Counted from the stretch's first letter, positions 22,758 to 38,012 are shown. The stretch is DNA of 64,000 bases from Nocardiopsis ansamitocini (GCF_030268225.1 NZ_BSQG01000011.1:19751-83750), one strand, 5' to 3'. A program made the numbers and translations. Notes: generated by a model not told the origin, from the sequence alone.

Positions 22758-23996
22758 TCAGAGCAGGGGGCGCAACGGGACGAGGACCAACTCGCTGAAC
22801 TTGGCCACAAGCGGACGCCTGCGCCACTCCTCCTCGGTGAGGGGACGGGCGTTGGCACTGTCCGCGGTGAACACGTCCTCCAGGTGGGAGGCAACGCCGC
22901 TGTCGAAGATCTCGACGTTGATCTCGTAGTTGCCGGTCAGACTCAGCCGGTCGACGTTGGCGGTGCCGATCGTGCTCCACTGCCCGTCGATGGTGGCGGT
23001 CTTGGCGTGCACCATGGCGTCCTGGTAGAGCCACAGGGTCACCCCGCCGCGCAGCAGCGTGGTGTAGAAACCGCGGGACAACCAGTCGGCGACGACGTGG
23101 TTGGAGATCTCCGGCACCAGGATGCGCACGTCCACTCCGCGCCGGGCTGCGGCCAGCAGCGCCCCCAGGATCTCGTGGTCGGGGATGAAGTACGCCTGGG
23201 TGATGTAGATGTGATCCCTGGCGCGGTCGATCGCCTCCAGGTAGAGCGCCCGGATGGGATAGATGAGCAGCTCGGGAATGTTGCGGTGCGCGCGGATCGT
23301 GGGGTTCCAGTCGGCGGCGCCGATCGGGTCCAGCCAGGGCTGTCCGGCTTTTCGGTGCGTGTTCCAGAAATCGGAGAAGGCGTTCTCCAGCTCCCACACT
23401 GCGGGACCGGCCACTCTCAGGTGGGTGTCGCGCCACTGCGTGGCATAGACCGAGCCCACGTTGTAGCCGCCCACGAAACCGGTGCGGCCGTCCACGGTGA
23501 GGATCTTGCGGTGGTCGCGACCGGACTTGCGCACGTTGAACAGCAGAACACCGGGGCGAAACACCGGATAGCAGATGACGTTGACCGGCCGCGGGAAACG
23601 GAAGAACTTCCGCGGCACGACGAGGTTGGCGAACCCGTCGTAGATCACGAAGACGTCGACTCCGCGCTCAGTGGCGTCGATCAGCGCACGCTTGAACTCC
23701 CGGCCCACCGCGTCGTCCTTGATGATGAACGACTCGAACAGGATCCGGCGCTGAGCACCCCTGATCGCGGCGAGCATGTCGTTGTAGACGTCCTCACCGT
23801 AGGTGTAGGTGGTGGCGACGGTCTCGCCCACCGGAAGCGACTTCGGCTTGGTTCGGGGGAAACCTCCGCGCTGCGGACGGAACCGCTTGCGCCAACTGTC
23901 GATGCCGATGAGTCCCGCGATCACTGTGATCTGAGCCGCGAACAAGCCGAGCAGCGCGCGCTTGACAATCGTCTTGATGGTGCTGCGTCTCAGCAT
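22758..23996 (-). CDS. phospholipase D-family protein (cardiolipin synthase-like, two HKD motifs)
   Basis: HRKILTVDG and HAKTATIDG. N-terminal TM helix. ATG 23996 with GGAGG RBS. The ORF-track N-terminal extension to 24623 is rejected. Confidence 0.85.
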   Translation of the reverse strand: MLRRSTIKTIVKRALLGLFAAQITVIAGLIGIDSWRKRFRPQRGGFPRTKPKSLPVGETVATTYTYGEDVYNDMLAAIRGAQRRILFESFIIKDDAVGREFKRALIDATERGVDVFVIYDGFANLVVPRKFFRFPRPVNVICYPVFRPGVLLFNVRKSGRDHRKILTVDGRTGFVGGYNVGSVYATQWRDTHLRVAGPAVWELENAFSDFWNTHRKAGQPWLDPIGAADWNPTIRAHRNIPELLIYPIRALYLEAIDRARDHIYITQAYFIPDHEILGALLAAARRGVDVRILVPEISNHVVADWLSRGFYTTLLRGGVTLWLYQDAMVHAKTATIDGQWSTIGTANVDRLSLTGNYEINVEIFDSGVASHLEDVFTADSANARPLTEEEWRRRPLVAKFSELVLVPLRPLL

Positions 23997-24139
23997 GTGA
24001 AATGACCTCCGGTGCCGCGAATGACGAAACTGCAGCCGTTCTCTGGCTTCACCCGCTCCCGCCGACGGCAGGGAATGGCCAACGCTACCGCGCGGTGACG
24101 ACTCACGGCTGCGGCATGACGGGGGGTGCCCTCCGGGTC

Positions 24140-24574
24140 TCACCCGGGCCCGGCACCGGGAGCGGGCACCGGATCCACCGGGGTTTCGAGGGCGGGTTCC
24201 TCCTGGGGTCCGGGTGCGGGAGCGACAGGAGGCGCCGGGGTCGCTCCGCAGAGCAGCGTCGGCCGTTTGACCCGGTCGCGCAGAGCGCTTGCGCTGACCG
24301 GGTCGTCGGACAGGAGCAGATCGCGCAGATCGTTCAGGTCGGGACCGGTGATCGTGCAGGGTACTTTGCCCCGAGGCGTCCAGACCTCGAACCCCTGACC
24401 GTCCCCTTCCGGTTGGGAAGCGGTGGGCTCGTCGGCCACCGCCTCGCCCGCCTCGGGTCCGGTGGTGTCGGCGGCCACCGGACCCACGCAGCAAAGGGAC
24501 AGGGTCGTCGCAGCCACGGCCGTTGCCGCCGCACCGAAGAGACGACCGGTGGGCCGTACCCGGCGGCCGGTCAC
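24140..24574 (-). CDS. secreted Pro/Ala-rich hypothetical protein (signal peptide)
   Basis: N-terminal hydrophobic signal AAATAVAATTLSLCCVGP. ATGA overlap with the upstream small gene. Confidence 0.45.
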   Translation of the reverse strand: MTGRRVRPTGRLFGAAATAVAATTLSLCCVGPVAADTTGPEAGEAVADEPTASQPEGDGQGFEVWTPRGKVPCTITGPDLNDLRDLLLSDDPVSASALRDRVKRPTLLCGATPAPPVAPAPGPQEEPALETPVDPVPAPGAGPG

Positions 24575-24822
24575 CGGGCAGCGCTCTTGACGCTCGTGAC
24601 GGTCGCGCCGGAGCGACCCGCACGGTAGGTGACCTCGTAGAAGGAGACGGTGCCGTCTGCGGCGACCGAGCTGCGCAGGACGGTCAGCGATGCCCCGTTC
24701 CGGTCCGCTTTGCTGGACTTGGTCTCGAACGACGCTTGGGCCATGGCCGCTGCCGGGGCAACGAAGGTGAAGGTCAAAACGGCGAGGGAAACGGCGAAAA
24801 CCCTGGTCAGGGCTGCGGTCAT
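24571..24822 (-). CDS. small secreted hypothetical protein
   Basis: Signal peptide LAVLTFTFVAPAAAMA. 83 aa. Confidence 0.45.
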   Translation of the reverse strand: MTAALTRVFAVSLAVLTFTFVAPAAAMAQASFETKSSKADRNGASLTVLRSSVAADGTVSFYEVTYRAGRSGATVTSVKSAAR

Positions 24823-29233: not shown

Positions 29234-29719
29234 TCAGGAAGGCTGGAGTTCGCGCACGAGATCCTCTTCGTTCTCCTTGCTGAGGTTGGTCTGGATAACG
29301 GCGGGATTCAGCGGCCGGAACGCCTCGACCACCCGGTCGACCGTGGCGGAGCGCGCCAGGAGGAACACCGCGGCCCTGCCCTGATCCAGTTGACCGCCGA
29401 TCTGTTTGATCAGGTCGTCGTTGATCCCGATGTCGGTGAGCCTGCCCGCAACGGCACCGGATGCGGCGCCGACGGCCAGGCCGAGGAGCGGGTTGAGGAA
29501 GAGCAGGCCGATCAGCGTCCCCCAGAGTGCGCCACCGGCGGCCCCCACTCCGGTGGTGTTGAGAGTCTGGTGGACCCGCGGTTTGCCCTTGTCGTCCTTG
29601 AAGACGTAGGCGGCGTCCTCCAACTGGAGCAGTTCCTGCTGGGACAGGTCCCCTGCGATGTCCAGCGCCCGCTCCGCGGTCTCCTTGTCGGCCACGCCCA
29701 ACACGACGAGGTGGGTCAT
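29234..29719 (-). CDS. DUF1269-family membrane protein
   Basis: MTHLVVLGVADKETAERALDIAGDL ... GVGAAGGALWGTLIGLLFLNPLLGLAVGAASGAVAGRL glycine-zipper core. Confidence 0.7.
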   Translation of the reverse strand: MTHLVVLGVADKETAERALDIAGDLSQQELLQLEDAAYVFKDDKGKPRVHQTLNTTGVGAAGGALWGTLIGLLFLNPLLGLAVGAASGAVAGRLTDIGINDDLIKQIGGQLDQGRAAVFLLARSATVDRVVEAFRPLNPAVIQTNLSKENEEDLVRELQPS

Positions 29720-30249
29720 AACGCGGTCCTCCCGTTTGGCGGCCCGGACGGGCCTGATCGGATTTCCTTGAGCGCTCCTGCCCGTCGGCGCACGGGGCTA
29801 GCACCACGGCCTTTCCCCGAACGGGCAAAACCCGTCCCCTCTCCGGACCGGGGCGGCGGTCCGGCCTTCCCAGCGCACGGAGCCTGCGGTGTCCACATGC
29901 CGGCACCGTCCGATGGCCGGCAGGCGTACCGAACTGTGCCGATTTGCCGGCCTTGATCGGATTTACGAAGCAATCTGGATTTTTCCCGGAACCAAGCGGC
30001 ACACTCCGGCGTCATAAGGAGTGTGTAAACGTCACCGAGCAATTCGCGGGGACGGAAAATGCGGGCGCTGTCCGCTCGGTCCGGGGTCGTTGGTTCGATC
30101 GGCCCCGACCGGGCGGATGACCACTTCCACTCCCGGACCGCGGAGCGGTTCTCGGCAGGGACCCCCTTCCCGGGTACGGCCGACCCGGAACTGGAAACGC
30201 GAAAGGCCCAATGGTCCGACCAACGCGGTAGAGGGGCTGACAGGTCTGT

Positions 30250-30891
30250 ATGCGTGACTTCTTCACGGCCGCCCTAGGCTTCCCTACTGTCCTGTTCAGC
30301 TTCGCCCTGCTCGTCGTCATCGGCTATTGGGCACTCGTGGTCCTGGGCGGACTCGGCGTGGACTCACTGGATCCCGACACCGAGGGGTTGGCCGACGGCG
30401 GCCTCACCGGTTTCCTGTCGGGCATCGGCCTCGGAGGGGTACCGATCACCGTGACTTTGTCCCTCGTCATCTCCGTGGCGTGGTTCGCCAGCCTGAGTGG
30501 CACCGCGCTCTTGGACGGCATCGACCTCGGCTCCCCGTTGACGCTGGCCGCCGCGGTACTCGTCCTGGTGATCGCGCTGGTCTGCGCTTGGGCGGCCGCC
30601 GCTGCACTGGGGGTACTGTGGCGACGCTTCGTCCCCGACGGACGCGAACCCTCCAAACGCGACTTCATCGGCCGGATGTGCGTGATCCGCACCGGGCGGG
30701 TGGACCGCGCGTTCGGTCAGGCAGAAGTCACCGCCTCCGATGGCTCCTCGGCCCTGATCCAGGTACGCCAGAACGGCGACGACCCCCTGACCGCCGGCTC
30801 GTCCGCGCTCATCTTCGAGTACGACCGCGAGGGCGCGTTCTTCTGGGTCACGGCCTACGACGCCGAACTCGACCCGCACCGCGCGACCTGA
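30250..30891 (+). CDS. NfeD-like/YqiJ-family membrane protein (partner of flotillin)
   Basis: Multi-TM N-terminus plus C-terminal beta-rich soluble domain. Sits immediately upstream of the flotillin gene, as in yqiJK-type operons. Confidence 0.6.
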   Translation: MRDFFTAALGFPTVLFSFALLVVIGYWALVVLGGLGVDSLDPDTEGLADGGLTGFLSGIGLGGVPITVTLSLVISVAWFASLSGTALLDGIDLGSPLTLAAAVLVLVIALVCAWAAAAALGVLWRRFVPDGREPSKRDFIGRMCVIRTGRVDRAFGQAEVTASDGSSALIQVRQNGDDPLTAGSSALIFEYDREGAFFWVTAYDAELDPHRAT

Positions 30892-30976
30892 GCGCCCCGG
30901 CTTGGCGCGGCCCGCCCACCGCACGGCCCGCCCACCGGCCCCGAAATCCCCTGACCACCGATCGCAAGGACCACGG

Positions 30977-33025
30977 ATGGAAACCATCACCACCGGGATC
31001 GGCGTGCTGATCGCCGTCCTCCTGCTCGTCCTCCTGGGGCTGCTGTTCGCCATCAGCCGACTGTTTCGCAAGGTCGAACAGGGCAAGGCCCTGATCGTCT
31101 CGAAGGTCAAGAAGGTGGACGTCACCTTCACCGGCGCCGTCGTCCTTCCGGTCCTGCACAAGGCCGAGACGATGGACATCTCGGTCAAGACGATGGAGAT
31201 CACGCGCACCGCCCACGAGGGTCTGATCTGCCGGGACAACATCCGCGCCGACATCCGCGTCACCTTCTTCGTGCGGGTCAACAAGACCACCGAGGACGTC
31301 ATCAAGGTGGCCCAGGCGATCGGCACCGAGCGCGCCAGCGACCAGTCCACCCTGCAGGAACTGTTCAACGCGAAGTTCTCCGAGGCGCTCAAGACCGTCG
31401 GCAAGCACCTGGACTTCGAGGAGCTCTACACCGAACGCGGGCAGTTCCGCGACCGGATCATCGAGTTCATCGGCACCGACCTCAACGGTTACAGCCTTGA
31501 GGACGCCGCGATCGACTATCTCGAACAGACTCCGATGGCCCAGCTCGACGCGGCCAACATCCTGGACGCTCAGGGCATCCGCAAGATCACCGAGCTGACC
31601 GCGGCGCAGAACATCCGCACCAACGAGCACAAGCGCCACGAAGAGAAGGAGATCGAGCGCCAGAACGTCGAGGCGCGCGAGGCCATCTACGCGCAGAAGC
31701 GCCGCGACGCGGAGAACGCCGCCAACAGCAAGCGCGACATCGAGACCAAGAACGCCACGACCGAGGCCGAGACCGAGATCGTGCGCGCCGACGAGCAGCT
31801 GCGGGCGCACGGTGCACGCATCCGCTCCGAACAGGAACTCGGCGTGCAGCGTGAGAACCGGGACCGTGAGATCGCGGTGGCCGAGAAGAACCGCGAACGG
31901 GTCATCGCCATCGAGACCGAGCGCATCGAGAAGGACCGCATGCTGGAGGTCATCTCCCGCGAACGCGAAACCGAGCTGTCGCGCATCTCCAAGGACAAGG
32001 AACTGGAGGCCGAGAAGCGCGAGATCGCCGAAGCCATCCGGGAGCGCATCGCGGTCGACAAGACCGTGGCCGAGCAGGAAGAGAACATCAAGAAGCTGCG
32101 GGTCGTGGAGGAGGCCGAGCGCCAGCGCCAGGCCACCATCATCCTGGCCGAGGGCGAGGCCCAGGAGCAGCTGGTGAAGGACATCAAGGCGGCCGAGGCA
32201 GCCGAACAGGCCGCCACACACAAGGCGCGCGAGGAACTCACCCTGGCAGAGGCGCGCCGGCAGGCCGCCGAGATGGACGCCGCAGCCAGTGTCCGCCTGG
32301 CCGAGGGCCGTCAGGCCGAGGCAGCCGCCGACGGACTTGCCGAGGTCCAGGTGCGCGAACGCGACGCCGAGGCCCTTGAGAAGATCGGCCGCGCCGAGGC
32401 CACGGTCAACCGCGAGAAGGCACTGGCCGAGGCGGAGGAGATCGAGAAGGTCGGTCGTGCCCGGGCTGTCGCCGACCGCGAGAAGCTGCGCTCCGAGGCA
32501 GAAGGTATCACCGAGAAGGCCGAAGCCATGGCCACGCTGGACGCCGCCACCCGTGAACACGAGGAGTACCGCCTGCGCCTGGACGCGGAGAAGGAGATCC
32601 GCCTCGCCGGGATCGACGTGCAGCGCCAGGTCGCCGAAGCGCAGGCCGGTGTGCTGGGCAAGGGCCTGGAGAGCGCCGACATCGACATCGTCGGTGGCGA
32701 CGGGATGTTCTTCGACCGGATCGTCAACTCCATCGGCATGGGCAAGGCCGTGGACGGGTTCGTCGCGCACTCCGAGGTCGCCCAGTCCCTGGCCGGCCCG
32801 TGGATGAACGGTTCCGCCGACCTGCCCGCCGACCTTTCCCGGCTACTGGGATCGGTGGACACCGGCGACATCAAGAACCTCACCGTGTCCGCCCTGCTGC
32901 TGAAGCTGATCAACGCGGGCGGCCCCAACACGGACGGGCTCCAGGACCTTCTGAAGTCCGCTCGGCGCATCGGCGTCGCCGATGCGCCCCTGTCCGAACT
33001 CGACACCCGCGCCGTGAAACGGTGA
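30977..33025 (+). CDS. flotillin-family SPFH-domain protein
   Basis: N-terminal TM helix, SPFH domain (ALIVSKVKKVDVTFTGAVVLPVLHKAE...), then a long EA-rich coiled coil with ERQ/AEA repeats. Confidence 0.85.
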   Translation: METITTGIGVLIAVLLLVLLGLLFAISRLFRKVEQGKALIVSKVKKVDVTFTGAVVLPVLHKAETMDISVKTMEITRTAHEGLICRDNIRADIRVTFFVRVNKTTEDVIKVAQAIGTERASDQSTLQELFNAKFSEALKTVGKHLDFEELYTERGQFRDRIIEFIGTDLNGYSLEDAAIDYLEQTPMAQLDAANILDAQGIRKITELTAAQNIRTNEHKRHEEKEIERQNVEAREAIYAQKRRDAENAANSKRDIETKNATTEAETEIVRADEQLRAHGARIRSEQELGVQRENRDREIAVAEKNRERVIAIETERIEKDRMLEVISRERETELSRISKDKELEAEKREIAEAIRERIAVDKTVAEQEENIKKLRVVEEAERQRQATIILAEGEAQEQLVKDIKAAEAAEQAATHKAREELTLAEARRQAAEMDAAASVRLAEGRQAEAAADGLAEVQVRERDAEALEKIGRAEATVNREKALAEAEEIEKVGRARAVADREKLRSEAEGITEKAEAMATLDAATREHEEYRLRLDAEKEIRLAGIDVQRQVAEAQAGVLGKGLESADIDIVGGDGMFFDRIVNSIGMGKAVDGFVAHSEVAQSLAGPWMNGSADLPADLSRLLGSVDTGDIKNLTVSALLLKLINAGGPNTDGLQDLLKSARRIGVADAPLSELDTRAVKR

Positions 33026-33032
33026 CGCGCCG

Positions 33033-36000
33033 GTGACCGACCTCGTCCAGGAGACAAACAACGACGACCGGGCCGGGCTCGACATGGGCACCTTCGAGGT
33101 GCTCCGGGCCCGGCTGGGCGAGCAGGCGGCCGAGCTCGCCCGGCGTGCCGAGTCCCTCAACGAACGACGTCTGGAGGTCTTCGGCGGGACCGAGCTGAAG
33201 CTGCTGGGCACCGAGCGCATCCGCACCGAGCACAACTGCGTGCCGCGCGACATCGTGTCGGTGGGCGGCGGTCTCATGCTGTTCGGCTACAACGTCTACA
33301 TCGGACTCAAGACCGGCACGCACGTCGAGGACGTCTTCTCGCTGCACCGTTTCGAGTCCGGTGCGGACGGCTTCTCCTTCGACGACCCCGGTCCGGGCGA
33401 GATGCCGGAACTGCTCGGCGACGAACGGTTCCGGCGCGACTTCTTCGACCTCTACACCTACTTCCGCGATACCCGACTGATCCAGCTGCGCCAGGTGGAA
33501 GGAAGGCTGCTGGCGGTTTTCCAGACCGGGCCCAGCCGCTCCGACGTCAAGGTGCTGCGGTGGCGCCTGGATCCCGAAGGAGCGGTCTCCTATCTGGACA
33601 ACCAGGGCGAACGCGACCACGTGTTCCCACCCCAGCAGGACTTCTCCTGGGTGGAGGCCACCCGGGAGGACCACGTCACCGGACGGCACCCGCACATCTC
33701 CATCGACGACGAGTTGTTCGTGGAGACGGTGGGGGGCGACCTCACCGTGAAGGTGGAGAACAACACCGAGACCGGCGAGGGCATCTACAGCGAGCCGGTG
33801 GACGAGGCGTTGCAGAGCCTCGCCGACGCCGACGTGTTCCACGCCCGGGTGGGGCCGCTCATCCTGCTGCGGATCCGGCCCTACAAGGAGACCGAGTGGC
33901 GCCACCTGGTGTTCAACACCAGGACCAAGGACGTGGCGCGCCTGGACGGCATCGGGCGGGCCTGCCAGCGGCTCCCCGAGGACCAGGGGCTGATCTTCCC
34001 CGGGGGCTACTACCTGTCCACCGGCCTGGCCCGGACGTTCGACACCGACGTCACGGACCTGGAGTTCAAGCGCCTGATCCGCTCCCCCAACGGGGAGGAC
34101 GTGCTCTACGTCTTCCACTCCCCCGCGGACGGCCGCATCCTGCTGCTGCCCTACAACGTGATCCGCAAAGAGGTCGCCGCCCCGGTCTCCTGCCACGGTT
34201 ACTCGATCTTCGACGACGGCACCATGGTGGTCTTTCGCTCCGCTTCCCAGGAGCCCACCCGGGTGCACCCGATGCAGGTGTGGCAGTCGCCGTACCAGTC
34301 CGACTCCTTTGCCGCGGCGCAGCCCAGCGGCACCGGGCCGCTGGAACGGGTGGGCAACGCCGACCTGGTGCGGGGCATCTCCGACGCCCTGTCGGTCACC
34401 CGCATGGTCGACGACATGGCCCCCTCGACCCCGGTGTTCGAGGGGTTGATCGCGGCCTGTCGGCGCACCGCGGACCAGTACCACTGGCTGGGCGAGGAGG
34501 AACTGCACGATCTCGGCGAACCGCTCGCCGAGGTGCGCACCACCGCCGAGCAGGTGCTGGACGAGTTCGAGAAGGTCCAGACGCTCACCGCGCAGGCCGC
34601 GCAGTCCCTGGAAGCGGCCGAGTCGACGGTCGCCGCCCTCGTGCGCCGCGTACGCGGCGAGGCACCCGCCAGCGCCGACGAATGGGTACGCCGGCTCGCC
34701 GAACTGCGCCGCGCCCAAGGACACCTGGAGACACTGCGCGAACTGCGCTACGTGGACGTCGACCGGCTGGACGGCATGGCCGCCCAACTCACCGGGGACC
34801 TGTCCGCTGCGGGGAAGCGGGCGGTGGAATTCCTGCAGGGCGAGGACGCCTTCACCGGCTACCACCGGGACGTGGATCTGCTCGTCGAGGAGGCGGGAGC
34901 GATCGCGACGGTCGCCGACGCCGCCCCCGTCCAGGAGCGCCTGGCCGAGCAGACCGAGGGCCTGGAGATCGTCACCGAGGTGGTGGGCTCCCTCGACATC
35001 GCCGACGCCACGGCGCGCACGCACATTCTGGAGCGCATCGGGGAGGTCCTGGGGTCGGTCAACCGGGCTCGTGCGACCCTGGCCGCCCGTCGCCGCGAGC
35101 TGCTGTCCACGGAAGGCCGCGCCCAGTTCGCAGCGGAGTTCGCGCTACTGGGCCAGTCGGTCACCGGGGCGATCGCCGCGGCCGACACCCCTGACGCCTG
35201 CGACGAGCAGCTGGGCCGGTTGATGCTCCAGGTGGAGAACCTGGAGTCGCGCTTCGGGGAGTTCGACGACTTCCTCGACGAGTTGGAGGCCAAACGCGAG
35301 GACGTCTACGAGGCGTTCTCCGCGCGCAAGCAGGCCCTGCTGGACGAGCGCACCCGCCGGGCCGACCGGCTCGCGGAGTCCGCCGAACGCATCCTGGGCA
35401 GCGTGGGCCGCCGGGTCGCGGGCCTGGGGTCCATCGACGAGGTGAACACCTACTTCGCCTCCGACGCGATGGTGGCCAAGCTGCGTTCGACGGCCGGTGA
35501 ACTGCGCGCGCTCGGCGACCAGGTACGTGCCGAGGAGATCGAGGGGCGGATCAAGTCGGCTCGCCAGGAGGCCGGGCGGGCACTGCGTGACCAGCTCGAC
35601 CTGTTCACCGACGGTGGGGAGGCGATCCGCCTGGGCAGCCACCGCTTCGCCGTCAACACCCAGCCCCTGGACCTCACGCTGGTCCCGCACAACGGGCGCA
35701 TGGCCTTCACCATCACCGGGACCGACTACCGGTCGCCGGTACGAGCGGAGGGCTTCGACGCGACCCGGCCGTTCTGGGAGCAGCACCTCGTCTCGGAGAC
35801 CCCCGAGGTCTACCGGGCGGAGTTCCTGGCCGCCTCCGTCCTGGCCGACGCCGAGGCAGGAGAGGGCGAGCACGACCTCGCGGCACTGCACGAGGCCGCC
35901 GCGAGCGGCGAACTGGCGGCGGTGGTGCGTCGGGCCGCTGAATCCCGCTACGACGAAGGCTACGAGCGGGGTGTGCACGACCATGACGCCACCGTGATCC

Positions 36001-38012
36001 TGACCGTCCTGCTCGACCTGCACGCCTCGGCCGGGCTGCTGCGCTACCCGCGCGGCGCCAGAGCCGCCGCCCAGCTGTTCTGGGCGTTCGGCACCGAAGA
36101 AACCGTCAGGCAGGGGTGGACGGTGCGGGCACGCTCGCTGGCGCGTGCCCGCGCGGTGTTCGGATTCGGCCGGTCGAACGCCATCGCGGAACTGTCCGCG
36201 GAACTGTCCGCGGCGGTCGAGGTGTTCCTGGACGCACAAGCGCTGACCGGTTACCGCTCCGACACCGCCCAGGCGGGCGAGTACCTGTTCGAGGAGCTGG
36301 CCGCGGACCCGTCCGGGTTCGCCACCGGGACCGGCGCCCGTTCACTGCTGGAAAGGTTCGACCGGGCATTGGGCGGTGCGTCCTCGGCAGCACGGCGGGA
36401 CTACGAGGCCGACCTGGCCTCGCTGGAGTCCGACCTGGCCTCCCGGCATCAGCTGGTGGAGGCGTGGTTGAGCGCCTACCTGGCTGCCAAGGGCGAACCG
36501 GGCGAAGAGGTCGACCTGGCCGAGGCCGTGGCCGTACAGCTGACCGGAGACGCGCTGGAGCGTCATGAGCAGACGGGTGCACTGGGTGCCCGGGCCGAGG
36601 GGCTGCTGGGCGCGCATCCTCGTGTGCACGAGCGGTGCATCGCGCTGCGGTTGGACGAGACGCTCTCCCGCACCCGGGCGTTTCGCACCGAACGGGTCCC
36701 GGCCTACCGTGCCTACCAGCGGCTTCGCAACGAGTTGGTGGCGGCTGAGCGGACGCGGTTGCGCCTGGAGGAGTTCCAGCCCGCTGTGTTGAGCGCGTTC
36801 GTGCGCAACCAGTTGCTGGACGAGGTGTACCTGCCGCTGATCGGCGACAATCTCGCCAAGCAGTTGGGGGCGGCCGGTGACGCCAAGCGCACCGACCAGA
36901 TGGGGTTGCTGTTGCTCATCTCCCCGCCCGGCTACGGCAAGACCACGCTCATGGAGTACGTGGCCAGTCGGCTGGGCCTGGTGTTCGTGAAGGTGAACGG
37001 ACCGTCGCTGGGGTATGCGGTCACCTCGGTGGACCCTGCCGAGGCGCCCAACGCCACGGCGCGCCAGGAGGTCGAGAAGATCTCCTTCGCCTTGGAGGCC
37101 GGCAACAACGTGCTGCTGTACCTGGACGACATCCAGCACACCTCACCGGAGCTGCTGCAGAAGTTCATCTCGCTGTGCGACGGCCAGCGCCGGATGGAAG
37201 GCGTCTGGGAGGGGCGCACCCGCACCTACGACCTGCGGGGCAAACGCTTCGCGGTGTGCATGGCCGGCAACCCCTACACCGAGGCGGGCAAGCGTTTCCG
37301 GGTGCCCGACATGCTCGCCAACCGCGCCGACGTGTGGAACCTGGGCGACGTGTTGAGCGGACGGGAGGAACTGTTCGCGTTGAGTTACATCGAGAACGCG
37401 CTCACCTCCAACCCGGTGCTGGCACCGTTGTCCACCCGAGAGCGCGAGGACGTACGGCTTCTGGTCCGGCTGGCCCGCGGGGACGAGGGGGTGCGCCCGG
37501 ACCGGCTGGCGCACCCCTACTCCTCGGTGGAGCTGGACCAGATCCTTTCGGTACTGCGCAAACTGTTGCGGGTGCAAGAGGTGGTGCTGGCCAACAACCG
37601 GGCCTACATCGCCTCTGCGGCACAGGCCGACTCCGCGCGGACCGAGCCGCCGTTCCAGTTGCAGGGCTCCTACCGCAACATGAACAAACTGGCGGAGCGC
37701 ATCGTGCCCGTGATGAACGACGCCGAGCTGGAGGCGGCGATCGACGACCACTACCTGGGCGAGGCGCAGACCCTGGCCTCGGGTGCGGAGGCCAACCTGT
37801 TGAAACTGGCGGAGCTGCGCGGCCGGCTGGACCCGGAGCAGCAGGCCCGCTGGTCGGAGGTGAAGGCCGGATTCCTGCGCGCGCAGGCCCTGGGCGGCGC
37901 CGAGGACGACCCGATGACCCGCGCGGTGGGCGCGGTGGGTCTGCTGGCCGACCGTGTGGGCGGGGTGGAGACGGCCATCGATCGGGCGTCCCGGCACTTC
38001 AACGCCGAGTAG
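33033..38012 (+). CDS. giant (1659 aa) P-loop ATPase-domain protein, flotillin-associated (often annotated DNA repair ATPase)
   Basis: Walker A LLLISPPGYGKTTLMEYV around residue 1305 and Walker B-like VLLYLDDIQH. GTG start 8 nt after the flotillin stop. High GC3 throughout. Confidence 0.7.
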   Translation: MTDLVQETNNDDRAGLDMGTFEVLRARLGEQAAELARRAESLNERRLEVFGGTELKLLGTERIRTEHNCVPRDIVSVGGGLMLFGYNVYIGLKTGTHVEDVFSLHRFESGADGFSFDDPGPGEMPELLGDERFRRDFFDLYTYFRDTRLIQLRQVEGRLLAVFQTGPSRSDVKVLRWRLDPEGAVSYLDNQGERDHVFPPQQDFSWVEATREDHVTGRHPHISIDDELFVETVGGDLTVKVENNTETGEGIYSEPVDEALQSLADADVFHARVGPLILLRIRPYKETEWRHLVFNTRTKDVARLDGIGRACQRLPEDQGLIFPGGYYLSTGLARTFDTDVTDLEFKRLIRSPNGEDVLYVFHSPADGRILLLPYNVIRKEVAAPVSCHGYSIFDDGTMVVFRSASQEPTRVHPMQVWQSPYQSDSFAAAQPSGTGPLERVGNADLVRGISDALSVTRMVDDMAPSTPVFEGLIAACRRTADQYHWLGEEELHDLGEPLAEVRTTAEQVLDEFEKVQTLTAQAAQSLEAAESTVAALVRRVRGEAPASADEWVRRLAELRRAQGHLETLRELRYVDVDRLDGMAAQLTGDLSAAGKRAVEFLQGEDAFTGYHRDVDLLVEEAGAIATVADAAPVQERLAEQTEGLEIVTEVVGSLDIADATARTHILERIGEVLGSVNRARATLAARRRELLSTEGRAQFAAEFALLGQSVTGAIAAADTPDACDEQLGRLMLQVENLESRFGEFDDFLDELEAKREDVYEAFSARKQALLDERTRRADRLAESAERILGSVGRRVAGLGSIDEVNTYFASDAMVAKLRSTAGELRALGDQVRAEEIEGRIKSARQEAGRALRDQLDLFTDGGEAIRLGSHRFAVNTQPLDLTLVPHNGRMAFTITGTDYRSPVRAEGFDATRPFWEQHLVSETPEVYRAEFLAASVLADAEAGEGEHDLAALHEAAASGELAAVVRRAAESRYDEGYERGVHDHDATVILTVLLDLHASAGLLRYPRGARAAAQLFWAFGTEETVRQGWTVRARSLARARAVFGFGRSNAIAELSAELSAAVEVFLDAQALTGYRSDTAQAGEYLFEELAADPSGFATGTGARSLLERFDRALGGASSAARRDYEADLASLESDLASRHQLVEAWLSAYLAAKGEPGEEVDLAEAVAVQLTGDALERHEQTGALGARAEGLLGAHPRVHERCIALRLDETLSRTRAFRTERVPAYRAYQRLRNELVAAERTRLRLEEFQPAVLSAFVRNQLLDEVYLPLIGDNLAKQLGAAGDAKRTDQMGLLLLISPPGYGKTTLMEYVASRLGLVFVKVNGPSLGYAVTSVDPAEAPNATARQEVEKISFALEAGNNVLLYLDDIQHTSPELLQKFISLCDGQRRMEGVWEGRTRTYDLRGKRFAVCMAGNPYTEAGKRFRVPDMLANRADVWNLGDVLSGREELFALSYIENALTSNPVLAPLSTREREDVRLLVRLARGDEGVRPDRLAHPYSSVELDQILSVLRKLLRVQEVVLANNRAYIASAAQADSARTEPPFQLQGSYRNMNKLAERIVPVMNDAELEAAIDDHYLGEAQTLASGAEANLLKLAELRGRLDPEQQARWSEVKAGFLRAQALGGAEDDPMTRAVGAVGLLADRVGGVETAIDRASRHFNAE

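Follow-up and report, generated by a model that had tools for sequence, protein, structure and literature searches.

The locus described here raises the question of what a very large ATPase is doing directly behind a flotillin and its membrane partner, given that operons of the SPFH2 type have been treated as pairs of genes (Hinderhofer et al. 2009, PMC2636767). In a 64,000-nt stretch of the genome of Nocardiopsis ansamitocini (GCF_030268225.1, NZ_BSQG01000011.1:19751-83750), the whole of which is called the window below, genes for a YqiJ/NfeD-like membrane protein (gene 1) and a YqiK-type flotillin (gene 2) are followed by a third gene encoding a protein of up to 1659 amino acids (aa). A first-pass annotation of the sequence had proposed that this giant protein is a P-loop ATPase working with the flotillin in a membrane-associated machine. 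We found that the giant protein accompanies the flotillin almost invariably across phyla and that it is predicted to carry an ATPase module of the MoxR class. There is, in our estimate, about an even chance that it acts as a ring ATPase that remodels a cytoplasmic flotillin/NfeD scaffold during membrane stress.

The gene set itself is real and the coordinates first given for it were right. Bases 30250-38012 of the + strand contain three open reading frames (ORFs) of 213, 707 (at its maximal length) and 1659 codons, all with strong coding signatures. The G+C content at third codon positions (GC3) is 0.86, 0.90 and 0.91 for genes 1, 2 and 3 and that at second positions (GC2) is 0.41-0.50, in a sequence of about 69% GC, and the numerous overlapping shadow ORFs are without such a signature. 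A chance ORF is excluded for the giant protein because more than 6000 clusters formed at 90% identity match it and because it is 100% identical to an N. ansamitocini protein at NCBI.

Linkage of the flotillin and the ATPase was examined in both directions. Relatives of the ATPase were found in at least 590 species genomes, and in all 80 of the fetched genome loci that had upstream sequence a flotillin gene lay immediately upstream. An orthologue of gene 1 was detected before the flotillin in 66 of these 80 loci and in 58 of 65 metagenome loci. In the other direction, an alignment of the flotillin was used to collect 80 metagenome loci (47-77% identity); at least 500 nt of downstream sequence was present in 66, and the ATPase was the next gene after the flotillin in 62 of them. 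When the neighbourhoods of 83 loci were clustered using GC3-filtered ORFs, only the three genes were universally shared, with no universal fourth gene. The linkage is near-obligate and among the tightest visible by comparative genomics, which bears out the earlier view of the giant ATPase as a true partner of the pair, conserved along with it.

The three-gene order, for which conservation among actinobacteria had been put forward as a check, holds there and well beyond, down to relatives of 28% identity. The trio was found in Actinomycetota, Pseudomonadota, Myxococcota, Bacteroidota, Deinococcota, Acidobacteriota and a metagenome-assembled genome of the Clostridia, with examples in Hoyosella, Hymenobacter, Deinococcus and Vibrio campbellii, on the Pseudomonas plasmid pQBR103 and a Streptomyces plasmid, and in the 28%-identity clade. 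Actinomycete members of the giant protein family are 70-82% identical over their full length, across orders, and identity across phyla is 42-50%. Profile and exhaustive searches gave 474 clusters formed at 50% identity (E ≤ 1e-30), with a uniform architecture and lengths of 1600-2040 aa. In PLSDB, 13 records of plasmids or megaplasmids also contain the ATPase.

The giant protein falls within a family already defined at Pfam and NCBI. Pfam DUF3686 (PF12458) matches residues 34-484 over the entire profile (1-448 of 448, E 1.7e-214), DUF7902 (PF25472) matches residues 605-689 (E 1.5e-30), and weak matches to Pfam AAA and AAA_5 cover residues 1293-1416. The Walker A/B module is thus not the only recognisable feature, as first thought. 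The set of Pfam matches, the length and the invariant motifs all fit membership of the DUF3686/DUF7902/AAA+ family. Searching the PDB by sequence gave only weak, generic AAA+ P-loop matches, and NCBIfam gave only RuvB P-loop noise. The NCBI version of the protein starts at ATG 33084 and has 1642 aa; most residue numbers used here are counted from that codon, and 17 must be added for the 1659-aa numbering. The upstream GTG (33033) gives the family-typical 15-17 or so residues before a conserved G-x-[YF]-E-x-L-R motif and lies 7 nt after the stop codon of the flotillin gene (33023-33025), one fewer than the gap of 8 nt previously counted.

Two AlphaFold2 models of the giant protein, built with a 41-sequence alignment (43-84% identity to the query), reached predicted local distance difference test (pLDDT) values of 88 and 85 and predicted template modelling (pTM) scores of 0.71 and 0.72. 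In the predicted order, a conserved N-terminal helix (residues 2-33) precedes a divergent, beta-propeller-like domain (residues ~39-401, ~360 aa, about 28 strands), after which come about 800 aa of helical bundles broken by two small beta elements, and finally an AAA+ alpha/beta core with its lid (~1243-1513) and a helical C-terminus. The expectation that the protein outside the ATPase module would be largely helical therefore held for the 800-aa rod, but the first 400 or so residues are predicted to be beta-rich. Many residues of the propeller-like domain are invariant, including NGED, H395, W400 and GN..VRG. The protein is soluble, with no hydrophobic segment and a maximum 19-residue Kyte-Doolittle value of 1.52.

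The Walker A/B module was located at residues 1280 and 1345, where the first-pass annotation had put it (near 1300). In an alignment of 27 family members with 30-61% identity, the sequences SPPGYGKT(T), LYLDDIQH, MAGNPYTE, NRAD and LQGSYRNM are invariant, and by comparison with MoxR-family patterns we infer that these are the Walker A, Walker B, sensor 1, arginine finger and sensor 2 motifs. With the ATPase motifs intact, the module is predicted to be catalytically competent. In the models, the AAA+ fold most resembles that of the MoxR ATPases CbbQ and NorQ, and next that of dynein and midasin, rather than that of the classical AAA proteins.

The most probable start codon of the flotillin is ATG 30977 and not TTG 30902, the codon chosen earlier for a 707-aa product, because ATG 30977 is preceded by AAGGA and orthologues align from residue 1 of this shorter version; the gap between gene 1 and the flotillin gene is then 85 nt. 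The protein has a single N-terminal hydrophobic anchor (residues 1-33), a Pfam Band_7 (SPFH) domain (residues 57-200, E 3e-11) and a coiled coil of 360 residues that is rich in Glu, Ala and Arg (20% E, 18% A). BLASTP aligned it with Escherichia coli YqiK at 28% identity over 453 aa (E 1e-34), and an orthologue is named 'flotillin family protein' at NCBI. No match was obtained with the Pfam flotillin C-terminal model, nor with PDB flotillin chains using phmmer at E 1e-3. ATPase-linked flotillins share a C-terminal block, EEYRLRL...IDIVGGDG..FFD..GK.VDG, which aligns with the C-terminus of YqiK. A special ATPase-docking domain on the flotillin was considered and rejected, as the C-terminus aligns with that of YqiK and the extra ~130 aa are coiled coil.

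The product of gene 1 is an inner-membrane protein with three transmembrane (TM) segments (residues 3-40, 55-88 and 89-125) and a C-terminal soluble domain of about 70 aa that is probably beta-rich. It did not match the Pfam models NfeD, YqiJ_N or YqiJ_OB even at E 10, and a PDB sequence search gave no match; among 14 orthologues, one reached NfeD (E 0.0024) and none reached the YqiJ models. BLASTP gave a weak but colinear alignment with E. coli YqiJ (E 0.01), a profile of the 14 orthologues was aligned with YqiJ by hhalign (probability 76%, E 2.3e-5, 128 columns), and the Hymenobacter orthologue is annotated at NCBI as DUF1449, the old name of YqiJ_N. Identification as a divergent flotillin partner of the YqiJ/YuaF (NfeD2) type is moderately supported.

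This type of operon, including the three-gene form, has already been recorded, and the novelty implied in the first-pass annotation did not hold. Ravi et al. 2024 (mSystems, PMC11237479), where they treat operons with CesT/Tir and band-7 genes, described the neighbourhood, with a 3-TM YqiJ/YuaF-type protein; its three gene families and their order are those seen here. The window, which is without the adjacent CesT/Tir-PspA dyad of the full form, corresponds to their abbreviated form; such operons, without PspA, were noted by them to be widely distributed and possibly to act with a PspA whose gene lies elsewhere. The same contextual inference of a role in membrane stress is drawn by these authors, in a computational account of a few sentences that gives no MoxR/CbbQ/NorQ class, linkage figures or Pfam family. 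With the gene association published, the value of the present analysis lies in refinement and testability, and not in discovery. What is added is the placement of the ATPase with MoxR/CbbQ/NorQ, dynein and midasin, the DD Walker B motif (see below), the quantified two-way linkage and the conclusion that the name 'DNA repair' is unsupported. The system was rightly called poorly characterised: our literature search found no experimental work on the DUF3686/DUF7902 family or on the flotillin-ATPase trio.

Genes that accompany the trio in particular lineages suggest a context of membrane stress. In Hymenobacter and Flavobacterium (Bacteroidota), CesT/Tir and PspA genes lie upstream of it. A gene for TelA (toxic anion resistance) directly follows the ATPase gene in the 28%-identity clade (L086:12001-13221, + strand). 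In pQBR103, a much-studied megaplasmid of environmental origin in Pseudomonas fluorescens SBW25 (425 kb; L002, 86458-103269), the trio comes directly after yjfKLMC-type genes encoding DUF2491, DUF350, DUF1190 and glutathionylspermidine-synthase-family proteins. An SPFH protein has been shown to be required for PspA localisation in Bacillus subtilis.

Most likely, the three gene products would work together as a single machine at the cytoplasmic side of the membrane. By analogy with solved SPFH-NfeD complexes and the QmcA-YbbJ cage, the flotillin and the NfeD-like protein would build a scaffold or cage protruding into the cytoplasm, and the giant protein would oligomerise by way of its AAA+ module, probably into a hexamer as CbbQ and NorQ do, while the propeller and rod would serve as arms that reach the scaffold and bind it. 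Binding and hydrolysis of ATP could then drive the assembly, opening or disassembly of the flotillin array when the cell responds to membrane damage. In Bacteroidota and some Proteobacteria the response would be wired directly to PspA; here PspA may be encoded elsewhere, or be absent. Remodelling of the scaffold is favoured because the linkage is near-obligate in both directions across phyla and because the compartments match, the ATPase having no TM segment and the flotillin being anchored only at its N-terminus. The invariant ATPase motifs, the closeness of the fold to the remodelling ATPases CbbQ and NorQ and the stress-related neighbours in other phyla also speak for it. A long helical rod with a propeller-like head would suit an adaptor that reaches and binds. 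Staphylococcus aureus FloA/NfeD reportedly confines unfolded proteins and keeps them stable in the absence of ATP, which would leave room for an ATP-driven partner.

Several points weigh against scaffold remodelling. The interaction, the oligomeric state and the ATPase activity of family members are all predicted properties, and the identification of the propeller comes from Foldseek matches of low TM-score. MoxR ATPases normally use a partner with a VWA/MIDAS domain, and none was found in the giant protein, among the window neighbours or in the conserved neighbour clusters. The Walker B motif has an invariant DD and not the canonical hhhhDE; DnaA-type AAA+ proteins also carry DD at this position, and the substitution may mean slow, switch-like hydrolysis, not motor activity. 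In 4 of the 66 metagenome loci unrelated genes follow the flotillin in place of the ATPase, and the flotillin can therefore exist without it. Of 166 sampled loci, only 2 had PspA as a neighbour, and tblastn with Bacteroidota PspA, CesT and TelA found nothing in the 64-kb window, these being distant queries that a divergent PspA could escape.

The same parts could instead act on clients, with the scaffold concentrating damaged or immature membrane proteins and the ATPase releasing, refolding or maturing these proteins and not the scaffold. CbbQ and NorQ, the nearest structural relatives, mature or activate specific enzyme complexes, the holding of unfolded proteins by S. aureus FloA/NfeD would suit such a chaperone, and the invariant residues of the propeller-like domain suggest a defined ligand site. 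With only three genes shared, however, no candidate client gene is conserved beside the operon, a VWA adaptor is again missing, and linkage to one flotillin clade is simpler if the scaffold is the direct partner; we regard a client-directed chaperone as rather unlikely, if by no means far-fetched. Much less probable is the reading carried by the database names, in which the giant protein is a DNA repair ATPase and the flotillin a coincidental or regulatory neighbour. DUF3686 has the Pfam title 'ATPase involved in DNA repair' and NCBI names the protein 'DNA repair ATPase', but apart from these names there are only very weak RuvB P-loop matches (E 3e-4 over 43 residues), limited to the generic Walker A region, and a weak coiled-coil match to LmuB. 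We found no SMC/RecN/RecF or ABC head, hinge, nuclease, helicase or DNA-binding domain in the protein, and no paper tying the family to DNA repair. There is one NTPase module, which is C-terminal and of the MoxR class, the N-terminus is predicted to be a propeller-like beta domain and not half of a split ABC head, and the universal partners are two membrane proteins. The protein is thus not a conventional SMC or recombination protein and its synteny is conserved, contrary to the refuting outcome named in the first-pass annotation, and a role in DNA repair is barely credible.

The first-pass annotation had suggested defence or envelope stress as the purpose of the machine, and only the second of these found support. 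Stress fits the PspA, CesT/Tir, TelA and yjfKLMC-type neighbours in other phyla and the account of Ravi et al. 2024. For anti-phage or anti-plasmid defence, a flotillin/NfeD membrane sensor or effector would be coupled to the large NTPase. Large ATPases are frequent in defence systems, the trio is patchily distributed across phyla and reaches plasmids, and LexA/XRE-like regulators stand beside the Bacteroidota versions. All three proteins, however, gave only noise in PADLOC-DB 2.0 (E 0.0014-0.0089, on P-loop or coiled-coil segments of 30-100 residues), there is no nuclease, protease, TIR, Sir2 or other effector domain in the operon, and no relative was present in 50,697 phage records. The identities of 70-82% across actinobacterial orders and 42-50% across phyla are atypically conservative for such a system, and the neighbours in the window are genes of the catalase, cardiolipin-synthase-like, lutABC-like, RidA and P450 types. 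Defence is accordingly a very improbable function for the trio.

Remodelling of the scaffold by the ATPase can be set against several known systems. As in E. coli yqiJK and B. subtilis yuaFG (nfeD2-floT), a gene for a 3-TM, probably NfeD-like protein is followed by one for an anchored flotillin with an SPFH domain and an EA-rich coiled coil. In E. coli K-12, however, no ATPase gene comes after yqiK, which is followed by sibD/ibsD and then hldE; the window flotillin is about 130 aa longer than YqiK, owing to a longer coiled coil, and the product of gene 1 falls below the Pfam NfeD and YqiJ thresholds. The pairing of an SPFH scaffold with an AAA+ machine at the membrane recalls HflK/C-FtsH and prohibitin-m-AAA, but FtsH is a membrane-anchored AAA protease of the classical clade, whereas the soluble window protein is without a protease domain and falls in the MoxR/dynein clade, and the flotillin assembly would face the cytoplasm. 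The MoxR proteins CbbQ, NorQ and RavA are of ~260-500 aa and have a separate VWA/MIDAS partner. Here, the AAA+ module makes up the C-terminal sixth of a chain of about 1,650 aa, with no VWA partner and with DD in the Walker B motif. Midasin (Rea1/Mdn1) and dynein contain six concatenated AAA+ modules and the window protein has one, so that it would need to oligomerise; beyond the AAA+ fold, the resemblance is an analogy of architecture and not a demonstrated homology. Finally, ESCRT-III/PspA assemblies with Vps4-type ATPases would share the proposed logic of an ATPase that recycles a membrane-bound assembly, and PspA is linked to the operon in some phyla.

A bolder form of the proposal, which we put forward as possible but doubtful, is that the DUF3686 protein is the first dedicated ATP-driven flotillin remodeller, a hexameric MoxR-class ring whose six propeller-tipped helical arms grip the cytoplasmic flotillin/NfeD cage and open or recycle it. 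For SPFH scaffolds in bacteria it would then fill a role like that of Vps4 or midasin, and flotillin microdomains would gain an energy-dependent cycle of assembly and disassembly tied to membrane repair of the PspA type. The function of bacterial flotillins is still debated, and the models that have been studied, FloT, FloA and YqiK, have no enzymatic partner with which to probe them. A flotillin clade with a conserved ATPase of some 1,650 aa offers an experimental handle in the form of an ATP-dependent step open to mutation, trapping and imaging. The name 'DNA repair ATPase', which is attached to thousands of proteins, is probably misleading.

The positions of the three genes, of the regions and motifs within the giant protein and of the flanking genes are given in Table 1.

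Table 1. Features of the flotillin-ATPase locus and its flanks. Positions are those of the window; residue numbers are counted from ATG 33084.
Feature	Position	Strand	Remarks
RidA-like gene	29234-29719	-	Divergent flank of the trio
Upstream intergenic region, 530 nt	29720-30249	+	Presumed promoter and 5' leader
Gene 1, 213-aa 3-TM YqiJ/NfeD-like protein	30250-30891	+	ORF, GC3 0.86
Gene 2, YqiK-type flotillin, 682 aa	30977-33025	+	Band_7 match, YqiK homology
Gene 3, giant ATPase, 1659 aa (GTG 33033) or 1642 aa (ATG 33084)	33033-38012	+	Pfam and NCBI match
DUF3686 region: predicted N-terminal helix and divergent beta-propeller-like domain, ~28 strands	33132-34484	+	
DUF7902, inside the predicted ~800-aa helical-bundle rod	34845-35099	+	
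Predicted MoxR-class AAA+ module (limits approximate)	36810-37622	+	
Walker A, SPPGYGKTT	36921-36947	+	Residue 1280
Walker B, LYLDDIQH	37116-37139	+	Residue 1345
Putative sensor 1, MAGNPYTE	37260-37283	+	
Putative arginine finger, LANRAD	37314-37331	+	
GSYR sensor-2-like motif	37659-37682	+	
Cytochrome P450 gene	38073-39674	-	Convergent flank of the trio

The three-gene unit is isolated in the window, between a divergent RidA-like gene and a convergent P450 gene. Catalase, PLD/cardiolipin-synthase-like and lutABC-like genes lie farther away, and the surroundings are ordinary housekeeping genes.

The 530-nt upstream region is longer than usual, and in it an extracytoplasmic function (ECF) sigma-like motif, GGAAAC-N15-GGTCC, was found at 30193-30217 and a GC-rich hairpin at ~30054-30134. 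Scanning this region for sigma-70 promoters and terminators found nothing, and an Rfam scan of the 5' region gave only noise-level matches, on the hairpin. Of 58 actinobacterial loci, 10 had a similar ECF-type motif (GGAAC, ~17 nt, CGTT or GTC) at a distance of 57-119 nt before gene 1, compared to 1.8% of random 80-nt spans, with a pattern chosen post hoc, loci that are related and not independent, and a control that is mostly coding sequence. Counts for similar motifs range over 10-12 of these loci and 2-5% of random segments. This is a weak hint that the operon may be under the control of an envelope-stress sigma factor. In 28 Streptomyces-type loci (in the range L037-L084), a PucR-like regulator gene (GGDEF_2 and HTH_30) lies just upstream of gene 1 in divergent orientation; one example is L051:3320-4402 (- strand), and the regulator is absent from the window. 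In each of the two Bacteroidota loci, a gene for a LexA/XRE-type regulator lies ahead of the CesT-PspA-YqiJ-flotillin-ATPase operon in divergent orientation (L088:127-891 and L003:568-1353, both on the - strand).

A few loci depart from the common arrangement. The four metagenome loci in which gene 1 and a flotillin of the same clade (~49% identity) are present with no ATPase (L129, L139, L159 and L160) have, after the flotillin, a PD-(D/E)XK nuclease and a trypsin-like protease, a sigma-54 activator or an integrase. In Flavobacterium litorale, an extra 586-aa SMC_N-like gene with P-loop and coiled coil is found between the flotillin and the ATPase (L088:5228-6988, + strand). A truncated family member of 1040 aa (L087:7001-10123, + strand) has DUF3686 and DUF7902 with no AAA+ module and no flotillin neighbour; it lies near integrase and Tc/Rhs toxin genes and may be a decayed or repurposed copy. 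A 'flotillin' induced 99-fold in a Mycobacterium chelonae double lysogen is on record in the literature; it may be of another operon type and was left out of account here.

The window also contains a gene of the PLD/HKD superfamily with two PLDc_2 domains (22758-24623, - strand), 5.6 kb upstream of the operon and on the opposite strand. Some proteobacterial versions of the operon include a PLD hydrolase, according to Ravi et al. 2024 (PMC11237479). In the window the PLD/HKD gene and the operon are separated by the lutABC-like genes and RidA, and the link may be a coincidence.

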